Shown: piece by piece, positions 11,350 through 20,970 of the stretch
How positions within the stretch are numbered: position 1 is the first letter of the stretch
Layout of the letters: every line of letters starts with the position of its first letter
Virus record (IMG/VR): IMGVR_UViG_2778261182_000009
Location: 1 to 22,745 of that record
Reading direction: 5' to 3' (one strand)
Origin: a virus
Taxonomy: Duplodnaviria; Heunggongvirae; Uroviricota; Caudoviricetes
Length of the DNA stretch: 22,745 nucleotides
The notes under the pieces: generated by a model
What the model saw: the letters and a program-made list of their open reading frames with translations, nothing else
Told to the model about the DNA's origin: nothing
The model's database searches: none
Position numbers and translations under genes: made by a program

Positions 11350-12238
11350 TCTGTCCGCGATACCGGTACCGGATGCGGTGGAGGTGCCGGACACCGCTGT
11401 GCTGGTCACTCAGATAGTGGCGAAATATCAGGAGCTGGATACGTTGTTTTCGGCCATGGTGGAATCCGATCCGGCGTATAAATGGGCAGAGGCACTGGCT
11501 TTTCGTGTGGCGCTGATGCGCCAGCAGGTCAATGATGCTGTCCGGGGTGTACTGCTTGCCAGTGCCCGCAGGAACGATCTGGATCAGATTGGTGCGAATT
11601 TTCAGGTGCAACGTCTGGTCATTACCCCGGCAGATGACAGCACCATTCCGCCCACGCCTGCGGTGTATGAAGATGATGATGCTTTTCGCGAACGTATCCA
11701 GTTGTCATGGGCACGACTCAGCACCGCAGGCGCGAAAAACGCATATCACTATTTTGCACAGAGTGCCGATCCTGATGTGCTGGATGTGAAAGCCTACGGG
11801 CCGGAAACGCATTCACAGGAAGGGCGTGTTTTTCTTTATGTGTTATCGCGAACCGGAAACGGTACGGCATCACAACCCCTGCTGGATAAGGTGGCAGCGT
11901 CAGTCAATGATGATGAAATTCGACCTCTGACGGATTTTGTCAGCGTCCGTGCGGCAGAAATTATTCCCTACGATGTGGTGGCGGATATCCATATTCCCTA
12001 CGGGCTTGATGGTGAACTGGTGATGAAAAATGCCCGTCAGGCGCTGCAGACCTACACTGACAGTGTTCACCGGATTGGTTCTGTGGCGTCCTGCTCCGGT
12101 ATGGACGGAGCCCTGCATCAGACGGGGGTGATCACGGTGGCACTGAAATCGCCGGTCAGTGATATTGTTCCGGTGATGGGACAGGCTCCATGGTGTCGCT
12201 CAGTCACACTGAACAAGGTGGAGACAACCGATGAATGA
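11324..12238 (+). CDS. J: Baseplate assembly protein J (P2 gpJ family)
   Basis: 304 aa; probable TTG start at 11324 with GAGGAG 7 nt upstream. Conserved blocks against P2 gpJ: IIDLSAIPVPD, NDLDQIGANF, RLVITPADDSTIPPTPAV, RERIQ, YHYFAQSADPDV, VRPLTDFVSV. Confidence 0.85.
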   Translation: MATSQAIIDLSAIPVPDAVEVPDTAVLVTQIVAKYQELDTLFSAMVESDPAYKWAEALAFRVALMRQQVNDAVRGVLLASARRNDLDQIGANFQVQRLVITPADDSTIPPTPAVYEDDDAFRERIQLSWARLSTAGAKNAYHYFAQSADPDVLDVKAYGPETHSQEGRVFLYVLSRTGNGTASQPLLDKVAASVNDDEIRPLTDFVSVRAAEIIPYDVVADIHIPYGLDGELVMKNARQALQTYTDSVHRIGSVASCSGMDGALHQTGVITVALKSPVSDIVPVMGQAPWCRSVTLNKVETTDE

Positions 12239-14816
12239 CAAAATCAGAAGCATACTTCCTGTCAGCGCCAGCCGGGCAGAGCGGGTGGTGGACAGTACCG
12301 CCGGTGATATGCTGGCGGAAATCGCGGTCTGTCTGATCCGCTATGTCAAAAATCCCGATTTATGTCCGACGGAATTGCTGCCATGGCTGGCCTGGGAAAT
12401 GTCAGTGGATACCTGGAATGAGCACTGGACGGAGGCGGAAAAAAAGGCGGCGATAAAACGTGCTGCCTATATCCATCGTCACAGGGGAACAAAAGCCGCA
12501 CTGAATGAATCCCTGGCAGACAGTCCGTTCCGGTCGCAGATTGTGGAGTGGTATGAGCAGACGCCACCGGGAGATCCCTATACCTTCCGGCTGAATGTGG
12601 AGCAGAAGGATCTGCCGGTTCTGATGAGCGACCACCAGGATTTGAAACATGCCGTACTACGGGCCAAAAATCTGCGCAGCTGGTTCAGTATTCACGTTTA
12701 TGGAAACTGCCGGGGGAACGGATATGGTTATGGCTATGTGACGGCGACGGAAAAACTGAAAAATAAAATCATGCCATCACAGATCCTGTTGTCGCCGGAC
12801 AGTGTGCAACTGGCTCCCGGAGAAACGGTATCCATAAAAGTGACGATATTGCCACTGATCGCTGAAGATCGCACCTTCACTGTTCACCTGGCAGATGAAC
12901 GTGTGGCTGATATACAGGTTGATGGTGATGTAATCACCCTGACCGGCAGACAGTTCGGGTCCACCACGGTGACTGTGATGACGGTTAATGGTGTGACCGC
13001 CACGTTACCCGTAAGCATTGTGTCAGTCACCCGCGTTTTGATCCGGGTGGACAGTGTCAGCAGGCCATTATTTATGGTGGATCCCAGAGAAACAGGATTC
13101 ACCATTGATTATGGTGACGGAACAGATTCCCGGGACTACACCATTTCAGGGAACGATGTTATGACTACCCGGACACTGGCACCGGGGACGGAACTGATGC
13201 TGACGGTGAAAAACTGTGAAAGCATTACGTTTTATAAAACATATACGTCATCAAACCCGTTGCTGGAGATCATTCAGGTCTGTAGTCTGCGCACAAGTAT
13301 GTATCAGTTTGCATACGGGCACCGTGCGCTGAGAAAAATTCATGACGGAGCATTTGATTACCTGGTAAATGTGAATGATTTTGGCAGGGCGTTTATGGGG
13401 TGTTCTGCTCTGGAAACAGTCCCTGAACATTTGTTTGCCGCCTGTCAGCGGGTGCTCTATTTTTCGTATCTTTTCTGTGACTGTTCATCGTTGTCTGCAA
13501 TCCCGGATGGCCTTTTTGCCGGTGCCGGAGAAGTGGTTGATTTTCGTTATGTATTCAGTGGTTGCAGGAAACTTGCCTCCCTGCCTGAAGGATTGTTCGC
13601 CGACGCGGTTAATGCCACTGATTTTTCGTATGCATTCAATAACTGCAGTATGCTGACAGCACTACCCCCGCGTTTGTTTGCGGGAGCCGTATCAGCAACA
13701 AATTTCCACTATGTTTTTAATGGTTGTCGGGCGCTGACTTCCCTGCCGGATGATTTATTCCACGGACTTCATCAGGCCAGTATTTTCTCCCGGGCTTTTG
13801 CACTGACAGGTCTGACGCACCTGCCGGATAACCTGTTTGCTGAAACCCGTGGAACAAATTTTGACAGCGTTTTTTACTCTGCGGAAAAACTGACACGGGT
13901 TCCCCGCACGTTGTTCCATCTGCCGCTTCATGACGGGAATGTCAGAATTATACTGGATGGTGCTTTTGAGTTTTGTAGTGGGTTACTTACAATTGAGCCG
14001 GGTGTGTTTGATGACATTACGACGAAGATACGTTCAGCAAAGCGTGTATTTCGTCGCTGTTATGCACTGAAAGCGATACCGTCCCGTCTGTTTGCTGGTG
14101 CGGTGAACTGTGAATCTTTTAACACATCATTTGAAAGTTGTCTGGCGCTGACCTCCACTGGTGATGAAGTTTTCTCGGGGAGCGGGATCCAGGATGCACA
14201 ATTAATTTTTGCTTATTGCAGTAACCTGACAACGACAGGGGAAAGGTTGTTTGCCGACTGTCGTTCCCTGACGTCATACAACAATTGTTTTTCATCCTGT
14301 TCGTCACTAAGTCAGATCGGTGCAGGTATGTTGTCCGGCTGCGTTTCCCTGAGAACGGCTTATCATCTGTTGACCGATTCCGTGGGGAGTAACCGGGTGA
14401 CAACCGTGCCAGGGGATTTGTTCCGGGGATGTGTTTCCCTGAACAACATCAGCAGTCTGTTTGATTCCTGTGGTCAGTTAACATCAATTCCGGATGAACT
14501 TTTTGCTGATTGTCAGACGATACAGCATGCGGGGGGCGCATTTTCCCGGTGCGTGCGGTTACAACGTGTCCCGGCGGATATTGTTACGCCATCGACGACT
14601 GCATCCAGCCTGGCTTCCATGTTCCGCAACTGTGAACAGCTTGAAATGGATATCAACGATATATTTACCCGGAATTTCCCGTCGGGCTGTAATCTGCTGA
14701 CTATTTTTACCGGCTGTAAAAATGTGACCGGCAGTAAATCTGAATTTCTTGCAAAATTTCCGTCGCCCTCTGATGCAGAGAATGCCTTTTACGGGTGCGA
14801 CCGGCTGACAGACTGA
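12231..14816 (+). CDS. I: Baseplate protein I homolog (P2 gpI-like N-terminal ~175 aa) fused to a ~680 aa extension: predicted Ig-like domain plus a Cys-rich LRR-like repeat array
   Basis: One uninterrupted 861 aa ORF. Residues about 40-175 align with P2 gpI (NPDLCPTELLPWLAWEMSVDTWNEHWTEAEKKAAIKRAAYIHRHRGTKAAL...PPGDPYTFRLNV vs P2 NPDTCPANLLPWLAWAFSVDRWDEKWPEATKRAVIRDAYFIHCHKGTIGAI...PPGTFRLDI). Downstream come an Ig-like segment (SPDSVQLAPGETVSIKVTILP...TTVTVMTVNGVTATLPVSIVS) and 15-20 repeats of about 24 aa of the form F..C..L..(I/L)P..LFA......F...F. P2 gpI is only about 176 aa. Confidence 0.8.
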   Translation: MNDKIRSILPVSASRAERVVDSTAGDMLAEIAVCLIRYVKNPDLCPTELLPWLAWEMSVDTWNEHWTEAEKKAAIKRAAYIHRHRGTKAALNESLADSPFRSQIVEWYEQTPPGDPYTFRLNVEQKDLPVLMSDHQDLKHAVLRAKNLRSWFSIHVYGNCRGNGYGYGYVTATEKLKNKIMPSQILLSPDSVQLAPGETVSIKVTILPLIAEDRTFTVHLADERVADIQVDGDVITLTGRQFGSTTVTVMTVNGVTATLPVSIVSVTRVLIRVDSVSRPLFMVDPRETGFTIDYGDGTDSRDYTISGNDVMTTRTLAPGTELMLTVKNCESITFYKTYTSSNPLLEIIQVCSLRTSMYQFAYGHRALRKIHDGAFDYLVNVNDFGRAFMGCSALETVPEHLFAACQRVLYFSYLFCDCSSLSAIPDGLFAGAGEVVDFRYVFSGCRKLASLPEGLFADAVNATDFSYAFNNCSMLTALPPRLFAGAVSATNFHYVFNGCRALTSLPDDLFHGLHQASIFSRAFALTGLTHLPDNLFAETRGTNFDSVFYSAEKLTRVPRTLFHLPLHDGNVRIILDGAFEFCSGLLTIEPGVFDDITTKIRSAKRVFRRCYALKAIPSRLFAGAVNCESFNTSFESCLALTSTGDEVFSGSGIQDAQLIFAYCSNLTTTGERLFADCRSLTSYNNCFSSCSSLSQIGAGMLSGCVSLRTAYHLLTDSVGSNRVTTVPGDLFRGCVSLNNISSLFDSCGQLTSIPDELFADCQTIQHAGGAFSRCVRLQRVPADIVTPSTTASSLASMFRNCEQLEMDINDIFTRNFPSGCNLLTIFTGCKNVTGSKSEFLAKFPSPSDAENAFYGCDRLTD

Positions 14817-16264: not shown

Positions 16265-16792
16265 ATGGAACTCGTAAACGTTACGCGTTACTACCCTGAA
16301 GACATGCCTTATGGTGAAGGCATTCAGTATTTCCGTAGTGAAGACGGGCAGGATTTTTATGAATCACTGGATAAATTCACGAAGAAATACAAGCTGTGCA
16401 CGCATCCTGAAACCGGCATTATTTATTCCATGGCGGAAGATGTATCCCGTCTTTATCCCGTTGGTTTTACCATTGTGGAAGTGGATGAACTACCGGAAGG
16501 ATTTTGTATTGAAGCCCGCTGGTATTATAAAGACGGTGAAGTACTGCCGGTCCCTGTAGACTACCGGCAGCAGGCAGAGTCGGAGCGTGCACGTCTTACT
16601 GCGATTGCCGAACGGGAAATATCCGATAAGAAGACGGATTTACTTCTGGGAATCATCAGTGATGAGGAAAAAGAAAAGCTGACAGCCTGGCGTGTTTACG
16701 CAAAGGAACTGCAGGTGATGGATTTCAGCGCCATTGTGGATAAGAGCGCTTATGACAATATTGCCTGGCCTGAATCACCACAAAATATCTGA
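16265..16792 (+). CDS. G: Tail fiber assembly protein (P2 gpG family)
   Basis: 175 aa, immediately downstream of the fiber gene, with a suitable RBS (AAGGAAAAATA-ATG). The ...RQQAESERARLTAIAEREI... segment resembles the conserved region of tail fiber assembly chaperones. Confidence 0.75.
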   Translation: MELVNVTRYYPEDMPYGEGIQYFRSEDGQDFYESLDKFTKKYKLCTHPETGIIYSMAEDVSRLYPVGFTIVEVDELPEGFCIEARWYYKDGEVLPVPVDYRQQAESERARLTAIAEREISDKKTDLLLGIISDEEKEKLTAWRVYAKELQVMDFSAIVDKSAYDNIAWPESPQNI

Positions 16793-16809
16793 AAAAAGTG
16801 AATCAACAG

Positions 16810-16833
16810 ACCGCCTTTAAGGGCGGTTTTTTT
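16810..16833 (+). terminator. Rho-independent terminator after the tail fiber assembly gene
   Basis: ACCGCC (16810-16815), loop TTTAAG, GGCGGT (16822-16827), followed by TTTTTTT; located between G and the sheath gene. Confidence 0.6.
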
Positions 16834-16846
16834 ATGGGAGAAATGT

Positions 16847-18322
16847 ATGTCCGGACTACATGGTGTTGAAACCATTGAACTGACAACAGGCACGGTCGCT
16901 GTGCAGACCATCTCCACGGCAGTGATTGGCCTGGTGGGGACTGCGCCGGATGCTTCCGGTGGTGTGTGTGCTTCCGGCACTGCCGGTTCGTGGCTGCTGG
17001 GAACGGCGCTGGATTTCACGGCGAAACAGGAAGGCCGGGCCGGCAATAAGATTTCTGTGGTTGCCGTCGCGGCCACAGAACAAAGCGCGCAGACCACGGC
17101 CTTACTGGAAGGTACAACCCTGACGATAAAGCTGGGGACGGATGAACACAGCCAGGTTAACGCCACGGTGGACCGTGTGACTGAAGTGGTGAATGCACTG
17201 GGTGATTCACCTGTGACGGCGGCGGTCAGTACCCTGAATGCAGGGGGAGCTGAAAATAATGTGGTGTCGCCGTTCAACCTGACGCTATCCGGCGGGGAAG
17301 ATGAGGCGTTCCCGGTTAATACACCGGTTGTGGTGGCAGGAGCCATTACTCAGGCAGGAAAACTGGGGGCTGCCGGGACACTGTATCCGGCCCTGCGAGA
17401 TATTTTTGACCAGACCGGTGCACTGGTGATTGTGGTGCGTGCGGAAAGTAAACCGAAAGCGAAAGAGGCTGAACAACGCGCGGCGGTGATTAAGGCCATG
17501 GAAGCGCTGACAGAGAGTAAAGGTGTGACGGGCTATCAGCCGCGCATTCTCATTGCCACGGGTTACAGTGAGGATGATGGTGTGGCAAAGGCGCTGGAAA
17601 CGTATGCCGCGAAGCTGCGGGCCGTGGCCTATATCGACTCTCCCTCAATGGCAACGCCGCAGGATGTGGTTCAGCGGCGCGCATCCTTTGGCGGACGTGT
17701 GGAACTGCTGCGCCCGCGCGTGTCAGTAACGGATGACAGCGGGCAGACGGTATTTCGTCCGTATTCGGCGCGCGCTGCCGGGCTGCGTGCCCGTATTGAT
17801 TACGAAAAAGGGTGGTGGTGGTCCAAATCAAACCAGGACGTGATGAATATCACCGGTCTGGAGCAGGTGGATACGTTTATTCTCGGGGAGCAGAACTGCA
17901 CGGCAAACCTGCTGAACATGGAAAATATCTCCACCATTATTCGTCACGACGGCTTTAAGCACTGGGGGAACCGTCTGTGTTCATCCCACAGTCAGTGGCG
18001 TTTTGAGCCGGTACGCCGCACTGCAGATGTGATTGAGGACAGCATCCAGGAGGCCATGCTGCCTTATGTCGATCGCCCGCTTGATAGGGATGTGGCGGAC
18101 GACATTCTTGGCAGTATTAATGCCTATATGCGTCAGCTTAAAAATCTGGGCGCGATCCACGGTGGCAGTGCCTGGCTGAATGATGAACTGAACACAGCAG
18201 AAACCCTGGCCGCCGGGCAGTTGTATATCGATTATGACTTTGGACCGAAGTCACCACTGGAGCGCCTGACACTGCGGGCGATGATTAACAATAAACTGGC
18301 GCTGGAGGAACTGACGGTATGA
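16847..18322 (+). CDS. FI: Contractile tail sheath protein (P2 gpFI family) with an N-proximal insertion
   Basis: 491 aa; the N-terminus MSGLHGVETIELTTGTVAVQTISTAVIGLVGTAPDA matches P2 FI ([37 protein letters not shown]). The C-terminal half is well conserved (GLRARIDYEKGW, IRHDGFKHWGNR, AETLAAGQLYIDYDFGPKSPLERLTLR). An extra segment of about 110 aa has no P2 counterpart. Confidence 0.9.
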   Translation: MSGLHGVETIELTTGTVAVQTISTAVIGLVGTAPDASGGVCASGTAGSWLLGTALDFTAKQEGRAGNKISVVAVAATEQSAQTTALLEGTTLTIKLGTDEHSQVNATVDRVTEVVNALGDSPVTAAVSTLNAGGAENNVVSPFNLTLSGGEDEAFPVNTPVVVAGAITQAGKLGAAGTLYPALRDIFDQTGALVIVVRAESKPKAKEAEQRAAVIKAMEALTESKGVTGYQPRILIATGYSEDDGVAKALETYAAKLRAVAYIDSPSMATPQDVVQRRASFGGRVELLRPRVSVTDDSGQTVFRPYSARAAGLRARIDYEKGWWWSKSNQDVMNITGLEQVDTFILGEQNCTANLLNMENISTIIRHDGFKHWGNRLCSSHSQWRFEPVRRTADVIEDSIQEAMLPYVDRPLDRDVADDILGSINAYMRQLKNLGAIHGGSAWLNDELNTAETLAAGQLYIDYDFGPKSPLERLTLRAMINNKLALEELTV

Positions 18323-18837
18323 TTACGGGTGAAAAAAAACTGTTGCGCGCATGGGCGTTATTTCTTCCTGGTGGGATCCGTCTTCAGGGGGCACATGAAT
18401 ACACGCCGCCTGCCATTAATATCACGACAGTGGATATCAAAACCGGCGCAATGGATGCACCGGTGGCAGTGGATGATGGTATGGAGGCGCTGACCTGCTC
18501 GTTTAAGATTTATGGCTACGATGTTGCCATGCTGACACTGCTTGGATTACAGGCGGGGCTTTATTCGCCGGAGATTGTTGTCCGCCAGGCTTACAGGGTG
18601 GGGAATGCGACCAGCGGACAGGTGGAAACCCTGCAGGGGATGATCTCCAGTATCACGCCGGATGCGCGCCCGGCAACGTCACAGGCGGAGGCTTCGGTGA
18701 CGGTGGAGATGTCGCTGAGTTATTACCGTCAGGCTGTAGATGGTCTGGAAACCATCTGCATTATTCCGGAGGAATTTGTTCGTCGTATTAACGGCGTTAA
18801 TGTTCTGTCGGATCTGAAAAAAATCATCCGGGTTTAA
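18319..18837 (+). CDS. FII: Tail tube protein (P2 gpFII position and size)
   Basis: 172 aa ORF directly downstream of and overlapping the sheath stop (GTATGA), with GGAGGA upstream. Assigned by synteny and the FII-like size; direct sequence similarity is weak by eye. Confidence 0.65.
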   Translation: MITGEKKLLRAWALFLPGGIRLQGAHEYTPPAINITTVDIKTGAMDAPVAVDDGMEALTCSFKIYGYDVAMLTLLGLQAGLYSPEIVVRQAYRVGNATSGQVETLQGMISSITPDARPATSQAEASVTVEMSLSYYRQAVDGLETICIIPEEFVRRINGVNVLSDLKKIIRV

Positions 18838-18884: not shown

Positions 18885-18897
18885 AAAGGAGATGCTT

Positions 18898-19200
18898 ATG
18901 TCGGAAAAAAACAGTGTTCCTGCCAGCAGCGTGGAAATTGTGTTATCCGTGCCGTATGTCACCGCATCAGGGCAGACGATCACGCACATCACCATGCGTG
19001 CACCCACCGTCCGCGATCGTCTGTTGCATCGACGGAGTACCAAACCGGAAGCAGAGGCTGACCTGGATATGATTGCCGGTCTTTGCGGGATGGATGCGGC
19101 GGACATGATGAACATGGAAGCGTGTGATTACCTGGCCCTGGAGCGGCAGTTTAATGTTTTTTTGCTGCCGCCGGTCCGGCGGAAGAAGACAGCATCCTGA
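18898..19200 (+). CDS. E: Tail assembly chaperone (P2 gpE-like)
   Basis: ORF 18892..19200; AGGAG at 18887-18891 favours the ATG at 18898. Small protein between the tube and tape-measure genes; its 3' end contains a T7G slippery run. Confidence 0.7.
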   Translation: MSEKNSVPASSVEIVLSVPYVTASGQTITHITMRAPTVRDRLLHRRSTKPEAEADLDMIAGLCGMDAADMMNMEACDYLALERQFNVFLLPPVRRKKTAS

Positions 19201-19337
19201 CAGCGATACGGCGTGCTGGTGCCTGGTTCGGGTGGTCTCCCGGAGATGTGATGGCGCTGCCGTATACGGATTTTGTGTCAATGATGCTGGCAGAGTCGGA
19301 AGAGAGGAAACGACGTTATGGCAACGGTTGGCGATAA
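18898..19337 (+). CDS. Tail assembly chaperone frameshift product (P2 E+E'-like), made by a programmed -1 ribosomal frameshift
   Basis: The zero frame reads ...NVFLLPPVRRKKTAS and stops at 19198-19200. The -1 frame opens right at the slippery site (a stop at 19152-19154 sits just upstream in that frame) and runs stop-free from 19158 to a TAA at 19335-19337 (FFAAAGPAEEDSILTAIRRAGAWFGWSPGDVMALPYTDFVSMMLAESEERKRRYGNGWR), overlapping the tape-measure start as in P2. Confidence 0.55.
19157..19164 (+). other. Slippery sequence TTTTTTTG for the -1 programmed frameshift (E to E')
   Basis: T-run at 19157-19163 followed by G; the zero-frame codons are GTT TTT TTG. This is the same heptamer class used for the chaperone frameshift in P2-like tail operons. 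Confidence 0.55.
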
Positions 19338-20970
19338 CCTTAAAGCGAATATCAGGATCGGCGGCACGATAGATCCGTCGTGGAAAAAATCGGTTGATGG
19401 ACTGAAGCACGGATTATCAGGGGCAACACAGGAGGTGGCTCGCCTGACACGCCAGCAGGATGTACTGAAACGAAAAATTCAGGCTGGTGCACTGGCTGGA
19501 CAGGATATTACTGAACTGCGAAAGCAGTATGAAAAGCTGGGCAAAAAAATTCATGATGCCACCGGAGAGCAGGACAAATTTAACCGTAAGCTGGCTCGTG
19601 CTGAACGTCTGGAACGCTGGAAAGGGCGGGCCGGGACGGTCCTTAAAACCGGTTTTGGGCTTTCTGTTGGTTCGGGGTTGATGCTGGCAGCGGGCACTAC
19701 CGCTGTGCTTAACCGGAATACGGAAACGGCAGAGCGGGCAGGGATAGCCCGCAGTTATGGTGTGGATTATGAAACCTATGCGGCATGGGATTCACTTGCC
19801 CGACTGATGGGGCTGAATGGTGAAAACATCGGTGATCTGTTTGAGGAGTACCGGAACAAGGTTTTTGACGATGATAATGGTGCCACGGATAAAGGGGCCA
19901 TTCAGGAGGTGTTTGGTGCGCTGGGGCTGAAAGCCGGGGTGATGGCCGGAAAAAGCAACCAGGAGCAGGTCGAATTTTTATTTGATCGCTTACTGCAGGT
20001 AGAGAATGAACAGGTGGCAGCCGGGATGGCAGATGCGTTGTTTGGTGGTGAGGCCAATAAAATTCTGACCTGGATGCGTCTGTCAGGAAAAACTTACCGG
20101 GAGCTTATCAGTGAGCAGAAACGCTATAACCTGGTGACAAAGGCAGGGGCAGATGGCGCAGTTCAGGGGCATATGGCGCTGTCAAATCTCAGTAATGTTC
20201 TGAGTTCGTCCATTGATGAAATCAGCGGGCAACTGGGTAAGGAGCTGGCACCACATATTCAACAGGTGACGGATGACCTTGCGGCCTGGTTTAAGTATGG
20301 TGGACTGGAAAAAATCCGGGCATTTATCCGTGATGATGCCCTGCCGGCGCTGATCGACATGGCAGCATGGATGTGGAAATTCGGAAAAGTTCTGGCTGGA
20401 ATCACACAAAAAGCCATTGAGTGGGGGTTAGCGGATGATCCACGAGAGGACCGGCGAGAGGTGCTGGAATATCTGGCAAAAATGGGGTCGCCGGAGCTGG
20501 CGAGAGCGGTGGCGCAGAAAAACGGTCAGGGTGAATGGTTTGATGAACTTATCAGGCAAAATCCGGACCTGACGAAACAGGTTGTACAGGCCTATAAAGA
20601 CACCCGCGGTTATTTCCCCTGGAATCATGACGATAAAAAGTTTGATGCATTTCTCGACCCTTTGCTGGGACCGAAGGAAGAACCTGATTTTAAGGCGATA
20701 AAAGAGAAATCCCGCACCTACATTGACGGACTTCCTGCGGCAGGTCAGGGACAGGAAAATCCTGATCGCCTTTCAGCCCTCCAGTATACACCCGGCAGTA
20801 TCAGCAAGGTGGAAGTAAAACCCACATATCAGATACGGGCCGAATTTAACATCACCCAGAAATCTGGCGAGGATGCCGGACAACTGGCAGACAGGGTGAC
20901 GAAAAATCTGGGGGATATTCATTTTGGTCAGCGTTCCCGTATGACTGATGGTTATGAATCCTGGGGGTGA
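19318..20970 (+). CDS. T: Tail tape measure protein (P2 gpT position)
   Basis: 550 aa, predicted largely alpha-helical (coiled-coil-like, with charged heptad-like runs), and a Gly/hydrophobic segment (GFGLSVGSGLMLAAGTTAVL). It lies after the E/E' chaperone genes and before U, as for P2 gpT. Confidence 0.82.
   Translation: MATVGDNLKANIRIGGTIDPSWKKSVDGLKHGLSGATQEVARLTRQQDVLKRKIQAGALAGQDITELRKQYEKLGKKIHDATGEQDKFNRKLARAERLERWKGRAGTVLKTGFGLSVGSGLMLAAGTTAVLNRNTETAERAGIARSYGVDYETYAAWDSLARLMGLNGENIGDLFEEYRNKVFDDDNGATDKGAIQEVFGALGLKAGVMAGKSNQEQVEFLFDRLLQVENEQVAAGMADALFGGEANKILTWMRLSGKTYRELISEQKRYNLVTKAGADGAVQGHMALSNLSNVLSSSIDEISGQLGKELAPHIQQVTDDLAAWFKYGGLEKIRAFIRDDALPALIDMAAWMWKFGKVLAGITQKAIEWGLADDPREDRREVLEYLAKMGSPELARAVAQKNGQGEWFDELIRQNPDLTKQVVQAYKDTRGYFPWNHDDKKFDAFLDPLLGPKEEPDFKAIKEKSRTYIDGLPAAGQGQENPDRLSALQYTPGSISKVEVKPTYQIRAEFNITQKSGEDAGQLADRVTKNLGDIHFGQRSRMTDGYESWG

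Follow-up and report, generated by a model that had tools for sequence, protein, structure and literature searches.

A P2-type tail sheath with one accessory module

The window analysed here is a 22,745-nucleotide stretch of tailed-phage DNA (positions 1 to 22,745 of IMG/VR virus record IMGVR_UViG_2778261182_000009). It encodes a 491-amino-acid (aa) tail sheath protein, predicted to be a member of the phage P2 FI / R-pyocin family, whose conserved core is interrupted by a single additional module of about 115 residues, likely a mobile decoration of the tail surface. The sheath gene and its parts lie as follows:

16847..18322, + strand: tail sheath gene (open reading frame, ORF, of 491 aa), with a P2 FI / R-pyocin family core and one accessory module
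16847..16957, + strand: aa 1-37, N-terminal arm plus the first domain II beta-strand, conserved in P2 FI (column conservation 0.84; strand at 26-32 in the AlphaFold2, AF2, model)
16958..17305, + strand: inserted accessory module, aa 38-153, with seven predicted strands and one 10-residue helix, ending in an L-x-G-G junction motif
17306..18319, + strand: aa 154-491, the rest of the sheath core, with what is left of domain II plus the C-terminal domain I, collinear with P2 FI 33-384

Two Pfam families match the protein above their gathering cut-offs, Phage_sheath_1 (PF04984; aa 215-375, 53.7 bits against a cut-off of 31.4) and Phage_sheath_1C (PF17482; aa 380-478, 60.6 bits against 26.9), and phrog_23, 'tail sheath', is matched with an E-value of 6e-110. 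Compared by BLASTP with P2 FI (NC_001895 17652-18842, 396 aa), the protein aligns in two collinear pieces, one at the N-terminus (query 5-36 with P2 6-37, 50% identity) and one covering most of the remainder (query 146-483 with P2 33-384, 37% identity, E 8e-65), while the query residues between them (37-145) have no significant BLASTP match. Among solved structures the closest is the R2 pyocin sheath 3j9q (386 aa), whose residues 33-381 align with query residues 146-487 (E 3e-53). Along its whole length the core is homologous to P2 FI and to the R2 pyocin sheath PA0622 (one-domain 'type 1' sheath; Evseev et al., 2022), and the domains, the N-terminal arm and strand, the collinearity, and the tube and chaperone/tape-measure neighbours described below together identify the protein, on sequence grounds, as a sheath of this family.

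The first-pass annotation of this DNA had proposed a contiguous insertion of about 110 aa relative to P2 FI, placed at 16964..17303, and this is what we find. Specifically, BLASTP leaves the middle of the protein unmatched, and when 13 P2-family sheaths are aligned with MAFFT the additional residues stay together as an unbroken block facing one gap in P2 FI; they are neither spread along the protein nor present in P2. Profiles set the ends of the module at aa 38/39 and 152/153, that is nucleotides 16958..17305, within two codons of the coordinates first proposed. Neither P2 FI nor the R2 pyocin sheath has anything equivalent to residues 38-153, and in both the Gp18_domIII_N domain runs without a break. 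The composition of the block had been described as rich in Ala, Thr, Val and Gly, and indeed these make up about half of residues 37-152 (16 Ala, 15 Thr, 14 Gly and 13 Val). The lengths given earlier for the two proteins, 491 and 396 aa, agree with the ORF and with NC_001895; the net difference is 95 aa rather than 113 because the P2 FI core has longer loops elsewhere.

The same architecture recurs in enterobacterial relatives. Although none of 5426 complete Escherichia coli genomes holds an identical copy of the sheath gene, 77 of them carry a prophage sheath gene that is ~94% identical in nucleotides and annotated as a tail sheath protein; one such prophage, examined individually, combines a lambda-like head module with a P2-like tail module. 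Hafnia phage yong2 (63% aa identity) and Citrobacter phage Chris1 (61%) have the module at the same site as the window sheath, the module itself being only ~40% identical to that of the window while the core is 67-69% identical. The records of the yong2, Chris1 and E. coli prophage sheaths carry no remark on an extra domain. More broadly, a large protein database holds hundreds of sheath homologues of 487-492 aa from Enterobacterales, and a megablast search with the sheath gene against the phage collection returned no match.

Insertion point and other decorated sites

The module does not sit where accessory sheath domains usually do. In phiCD27 gp55, nearly identical to the structurally solved phiCD508 gp55, Pfam resolves Gp18_domIII_N (PF22671, 35-93), Phage_sheath_domII (PF17481, 95-204) and Phage_sheath_1 (208-365) in succession, and in P2 FI Gp18_domIII_N is contiguous at aa 26-86. 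In the window clade, by contrast, the module splits PF22671 at approximately profile position 8, such that AcaML1 residues 149-202 correspond to profile positions 8-58 and yong2 residues 145-197 to positions 9-58. The order of elements is therefore strand 1, module, strand 2, helix, strand 3 in the window clade, as opposed to strand 1, strand 2, helix, strand 3, module in canonical three-domain sheaths. This puts the window module, which follows the first domain II strand, ~60 residues before the usual accessory-domain site. It thus interrupts Gp18_domIII_N, whereas the PF17481 distal domain (domain III) of phiCD508 gp55, DSY3957 (3hxl) and Lin1278 comes after Gp18_domIII_N and before Phage_sheath_1 (gp55 aa 95-204). 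The 'Russian-doll' domains I and II of T4 gp18 are likewise two nested extras at the canonical site, with no detected sequence similarity to the insert.

Extra residues occur at three or more sites among the P2-family sheaths of the 13-sequence alignment. Site A, that of the window, is shared with the E. coli prophage, yong2, Chris1, 569R10, Valp1 and AcaML1. At site B, the canonical one, Escherichia phage PhiKM (a Bcepmuvirus) carries an insert of ~90 residues (aa ~85-175) after the third domain II strand, which is recognized neither by PF17481 nor by the window module profile. Site C follows the 'PRIL..PGF' strand (equivalent to window aa ~242), where KA2-1, PPpW-3, FoX3 and ECOO78 have 80-165 extra residues built from a repeated G-x-G-Y-T-S-A-P-T-V-x-F-x-G-G motif that matches no Pfam family, and have nothing at the site used in the window; this decoration appears to be unrelated to the window module. 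ECOO78, ep3, PhiKM and others had been candidate sharers of the window insert on the strength of full-length tblastn matches, and were discarded when MAFFT put their extras at other sites.

Two sheath homologues carry the module twice. One of 593 aa (P0216) has two tandem modules at site A, and another of 599 aa (P0269) has one module at site A and a second at site B, so the same module can occupy either loop. Moreover, the cores of Valp1 and AcaML1 are 54-56% identical to those of the site-C sheaths and only 39-50% identical to the window core. Core identity thus does not follow insert site, a sign that sheaths of this family have gained, lost or exchanged modules.

Predicted fold and remote similarities

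The AF2 model of the full-length sheath, made from a 54-sequence alignment, is of moderate overall quality (mean predicted local distance difference test score, pLDDT, 71.7; aa 323-393 poor), and aa 30-150 are its most confident region (pLDDT 89-95). Residues 33-158 modelled alone give a pLDDT of 90.4 and a predicted template-modelling score (pTM) of 0.80, with seven strands, one 10-residue helix and one short helix. Structure prediction had been suggested in the first-pass annotation as a way to see whether the insert forms an autonomous domain, and the models, confident both in the full-length context and in isolation, indicate that it does; we accordingly describe the insert as a predicted, independently folding alpha/beta module of ~115 residues.

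The only Pfam family that recurs among homologues of the insert is PF17481, Phage_sheath_domII, which matches 8 of 26 of them, always below threshold (best E 7e-4), and which scores the window insert at 11.3 bits (E 0.49), short of the gathering score of 31.4. Against whole sheaths the family does somewhat better, with yong2 the best homologue (25.3 bits, E 2e-5) and Valp1 at E 6e-4, again below gathering. Searched against the single target gp55, the insert profile gives an E-value of ~1e-3, and hhalign consistently places its best local match within the C-terminal half of gp55 domain III, with the 'L-x-G-G-x-D' exit motif in register. Against such a kinship stand three results: Foldseek finds no match to the insert model in the PDB with E <0.28, the insert profiles find nothing among PDB sequences, and hhalign of these profiles with phiCD27 gp55 is not significant. 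A phmmer search of the insert against PDB sequences gave chance matches only (E 1.8 or worse), and the top match of a broader module profile to the same sequences was marginal, the sheath gp20 of phage Milano (E 0.13). The insert is probably related to PF17481 at a level below what we would call established, and we have not filed it as a member of that family.

In the BFVD collection of predicted viral structures, Foldseek returned four matches with E 1e-3 or better, all phage proteins and none a sheath by name; the best are a 246-aa Myoviridae protein (template-modelling score 0.74), a 423-aa protein of crAss-like phage cr128_1 and a 1214-aa 'Fibronectin type III' phage protein. These model-based matches would fit the use of the module in several kinds of virion protein.

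Constraint and variability

Across 54 homologues, conservation per column lies between 0.37 and 0.59 for the insert and mostly between 0.63 and 0.92 for the core, where a single variable block stands out (aa 201-220, at 0.48). The insert ranges in length from 106 to 163 aa among these homologues, with indel hot spots near aa 79/80, 117/118 and 127-133, and two of its loops can be delimited:

17075..17098, + strand: indel-prone module loop, ~aa 77-84, with 5-50 extra residues in homologues (insert alignment columns 48-57)
17225..17245, + strand: second variable module loop, ~aa 127-133, absent from most homologues (alignment columns 120-126; over aa 121-140 the gap fraction is 0.26 and conservation 0.37)

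Between the window and yong2 the insert is 40% and the core 69% identical. Relative to the E. coli prophage copy (94.6% identical), the Nei-Gojobori ratio of non-synonymous to synonymous change (dN/dS) is 0.145 in the insert and 0.027 in the C-terminal core, each derived from small numbers (5 and 5 non-synonymous changes). Of the 80 substitutions that separate the two copies, 67 fall at codon position 3 of the + frame, and the segment is therefore translated in that frame and held under purifying selection. On these estimates the insert would evolve about five times faster than the core while still being under purifying selection. The positions of the module that vary little or not at all are occupied by Gly, Ala, Leu, Asn, Pro, Phe and one Asp; nothing among them resembles a catalytic set, and these conserved residues are probably those that determine the fold. 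A catalytic or intein-like insert was also considered, and was dropped: Cys, His and Ser are not conserved in the insert, and its uninterrupted reading frame is subject to purifying selection.

Occurrence of the module outside sheaths

A hidden Markov model (HMM) of the module, built from 26 insert sequences and searched against 1.84 billion representative proteins, found 633 clusters at E <=1e-3 (89 at <=1e-10), most of which are not sheaths. Of the 150 best among the 633, a sheath core can be detected in 35, where the module occupies aa ~33-160, but not in the other 115; a minority of these 115 are short sheath fragments, and most of the others carry 2-10 tandem copies of the module.

Carriers identified with Pfam, NCBIfam and PHROGs are of several kinds. 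In two flagellins (P0139, P0148) three copies of the module lie between Flagellin_N and Flagellin_C, a region that in flagellins forms the exposed outer domains, and a further carrier (P0135) is FlgL (TIGR02550, 163.9 bits). Flagellins and FlgL thus resemble the window sheath in having a conserved polymerizing core that carries a variable excursion. Other carriers are a giant protein of 2909 aa with PATR autotransporter repeats and a DUF3383 protein. In addition, a group of 700-1050-aa proteins (P0121, P0123, P0124 and relatives) contains 4-6 tandem modules between conserved termini (N-terminal motif M-x-L-I..F-L-x-I-A-D-R); their sole match is phrog_8757, 'virion structural protein', with no match in Pfam or NCBIfam. 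On one metagenome contig (locus L014, 8001-10142) the gene for such a repeat protein lies 2.5 kb upstream of a Phage_tube_2 gene and beside a histidine kinase/response regulator pair.

One of the repeat proteins searched by tblastn against phage genomes finds the sheath inserts of Valp1, ZRG1, AcaML1 and H905 at 33-43% identity. The similarities found with the HMM were controlled in three ways. First, composition-preserving shuffles of the HMM matches reach at most 9.5 bits compared with a median of 35.8 bits for the real ones. Second, a reciprocal profile was built from 55 repeats of 30 multi-copy proteins, with carriers of the sheath core or of the sheath junction motif excluded, and it finds aa 39-152 of the window sheath at 49.5 bits (positions 5-118 of 119 in the profile); third, a profile of 19 repeats from the flagellin family finds aa 53-154 at 39.3 bits. 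P2 FI and the sheaths with inserts at sites B and C are matched by neither of these reciprocal profiles. The similarity therefore reflects real homology and not a shared Ala/Thr/Gly/Val bias.

No model describing the module is present in Pfam-A (2025 copy) or NCBIfam, and a survey of flagellar outer domains (PMC11532411) makes no mention of phages or sheaths. We lean, by a modest margin, towards the view that these sequences constitute a 'polymer-surface' family of ~115-residue modules, exchanged among sheaths, the outer regions of flagellins and FlgL, and autotransporter-like and phage-like structural proteins, and captured at more than one sheath loop.

Genomic context

The sheath gene is directly followed by the gene for the tail tube:

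18319..18837, + strand: tail tube gene (PF04985 Phage_tube, 79.1 bits), whose start overlaps the sheath stop

Beyond the tube gene are an E-type tail chaperone (Phage_TAC_7, 45.6 bits), a 550-aa ORF that occupies the tape-measure position and has no Pfam match, gpU (GpU, 97 bits) and gpD, where the GPD match is below its cut-off (25.9 bits against 30.1). On the 5' side lie a tail-fibre assembly gene and fibre genes. The resulting order of fibre assembly, sheath, tube, E chaperone, tape measure, gpU and gpD is common to the window and to P2 and the R2 pyocin.

Some further details of these neighbours are worth recording. The sheath stop codon and the tube start codon overlap as ATGA at 18319..18322, which suggests that translation of the two genes may be coupled. 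A second ORF (19124..19372), in a different frame, overlaps the E-type chaperone ORF (18892..19200), an arrangement that the P2 E/E' -1 frameshift would lead one to expect. Finally, an 861-aa protein encoded at 12231..14816 (+ strand) begins with a P2 gpI baseplate domain (Tail_P2_I, aa 9-149) and continues with a Big_2 Ig-like domain (aa 185-254) and BspA-type leucine-rich repeats (aa 615-764). As gpI is 176 aa in P2 and 196 aa in the E. coli prophage homologue, the ~680-aa C-terminal extension of this gpI-like protein may represent a receptor-binding baseplate add-on.

Proposed role of the module and alternative explanations

A sheath with one extra domain is in itself ordinary. 'Type 2' sheaths have been described as a main domain plus one compact additional domain, with lengths of 426-713 aa (PMC9230969), and the window sheath fits this definition with its 491 aa and one extra compact domain in the AF2 model at aa 38-153; moreover, its protein family is already annotated as tail sheath in databases. 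The insertion point and the sequence link to flagellin and FlgL repeats, on the other hand, appear to be undescribed in the literature searched.

The N- and C-terminal parts of sheath proteins (domain I) make the contacts of the lattice and with the tube. We propose that in this P2/pyocin-type sheath, too, the conserved N- and C-terminal parts would build the contractile lattice and contact the tube, and that a single ~115-residue module has been inserted in the loop after the first beta-strand of domain II. The module would leave the core from the outward-facing domain II and re-enter it at the conserved 'LSGGEDEAFP' junction. Because it is an excursion from an outward-facing domain, and because it is otherwise found in the outer regions of flagella, it most likely projects outside the tail, where each subunit would contribute one copy to the exterior, outside the contraction machinery. 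The lack of a catalytic signature, the fold-determining character of its conserved residues, its faster evolution and its indel-prone loops lead us to read it as a passive surface decoration. Such a reading is in keeping with what is known of sheaths, whose additional domains nest towards the outside and show less conservation (PMC6088184; PMC9230969). The distal sheath domain of phiCD508 is flexible along the tail and becomes ordered only at its contact with the baseplate triplex protein (PMC11948020), and the window module might plausibly dock baseplate proteins in a similar manner, or else thicken or laterally brace the extended sheath.

From its topology and its relatives, then, we infer that the module spanning aa 38-153 is exposed on the surface and has a structural, non-essential role, and we consider it likely that the insert is a mobile, surface-exposed and passive structural decoration, a judgement that draws mostly on the identity and topology of the module and less on its function. 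The first-pass annotation had spoken of a lineage-specific, exposed domain, possibly decorative or binding-related. Of the two roles named there, the decorative one is the better supported, and exposure is supported by the topology and relatives just mentioned; the lineage-specific part does not, as the module is widespread and mobile.

Of the alternatives, the most credible is that the module is a ligand-binding, adhesin-like domain which sticks reversibly to glycans or proteins of the host surface, as has been proposed for the Ig-like domains of phages. Adhesion has been raised as one hypothesis for extra sheath domains (PMC9230969), the loops of the module vary in length and sequence, and other carriers of the module are the giant PATR/autotransporter-like protein and the outer regions of flagellins, which are capable of mediating adhesion. 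However, the insert has no significant match to a carbohydrate-binding or lectin family (the sole such hit being 1 of 26 members to CBM_6, at E 0.031), its conserved residues (Gly, Ala, Leu, Asn and Pro) do not make up a polar or aromatic pocket, and dedicated fibre proteins are already encoded in the window. A binding role for the sheath insert thus seems to us unlikely, and the decorative one is better supported.

A second alternative concerns the direction of change, namely that the module is ancestral at site A and was lost from the P2/pyocin lineage. Accessory domains of related fold are widespread in sheaths, and the site-A sheaths are not monophyletic by core identity (Valp1, AcaML1), a pattern that could reflect ancient presence followed by losses. 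Yet Gp18_domIII_N is unbroken both in the minimal sheath P2 FI and in three-domain sheaths of the canonical kind (phiCD27/phiCD508 gp55), which makes the split state the derived one; the module is demonstrably mobile, with tandem arrays, unrelated host proteins, and two sites or two copies within single sheaths; and close relatives have unrelated inserts at two other sites. We therefore hold ancestral presence to be rather less probable still than a binding role, and favour insertion into a P2-type sheath.

The last alternative invokes a feature of the opposite strand:

16750..17346, - strand: antisense ORF, 198 aa, ATG-initiated, considered a non-gene

That this ORF is a real overlapping gene which has shaped the unusual composition of the insert is highly improbable: it does begin with ATG, and its frame is uninterrupted across the insert in the E. 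coli prophage, but its 3' part is truncated there, it is absent or shifted in more distant homologues, the substitutions favour codon position 3 of the + frame as given above, synonymous recodings of the sheath protein yield a mean longest antisense open stretch of 178 aa compared with the 167 observed inside the gene (65% of recodings being equal to or longer than that observed), and comparable antisense stretches occur all over sheath genes, P2 FI included, with none over the insert of the lower-GC 569R10. The substitution pattern, the recodings and the homologues all bear out the earlier opinion that it is spurious, and it is best read as a side effect of a sense strand poor in Tyr, His and Gln.

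These findings leave the understanding of contraction unchanged. They do add to the picture of a protein family in which many members carry non-essential outer domains, and in which the sheaths of the P2 family have acquired decorations independently, at three sites or more. In practical terms, a permissive loop of a P2-type sheath that accepts a whole folded domain is useful for display on, and engineering of, tailocins and phages. If the wider family of polymer-surface modules is borne out, phage tails and bacterial flagella would share a common pool of decoration domains.
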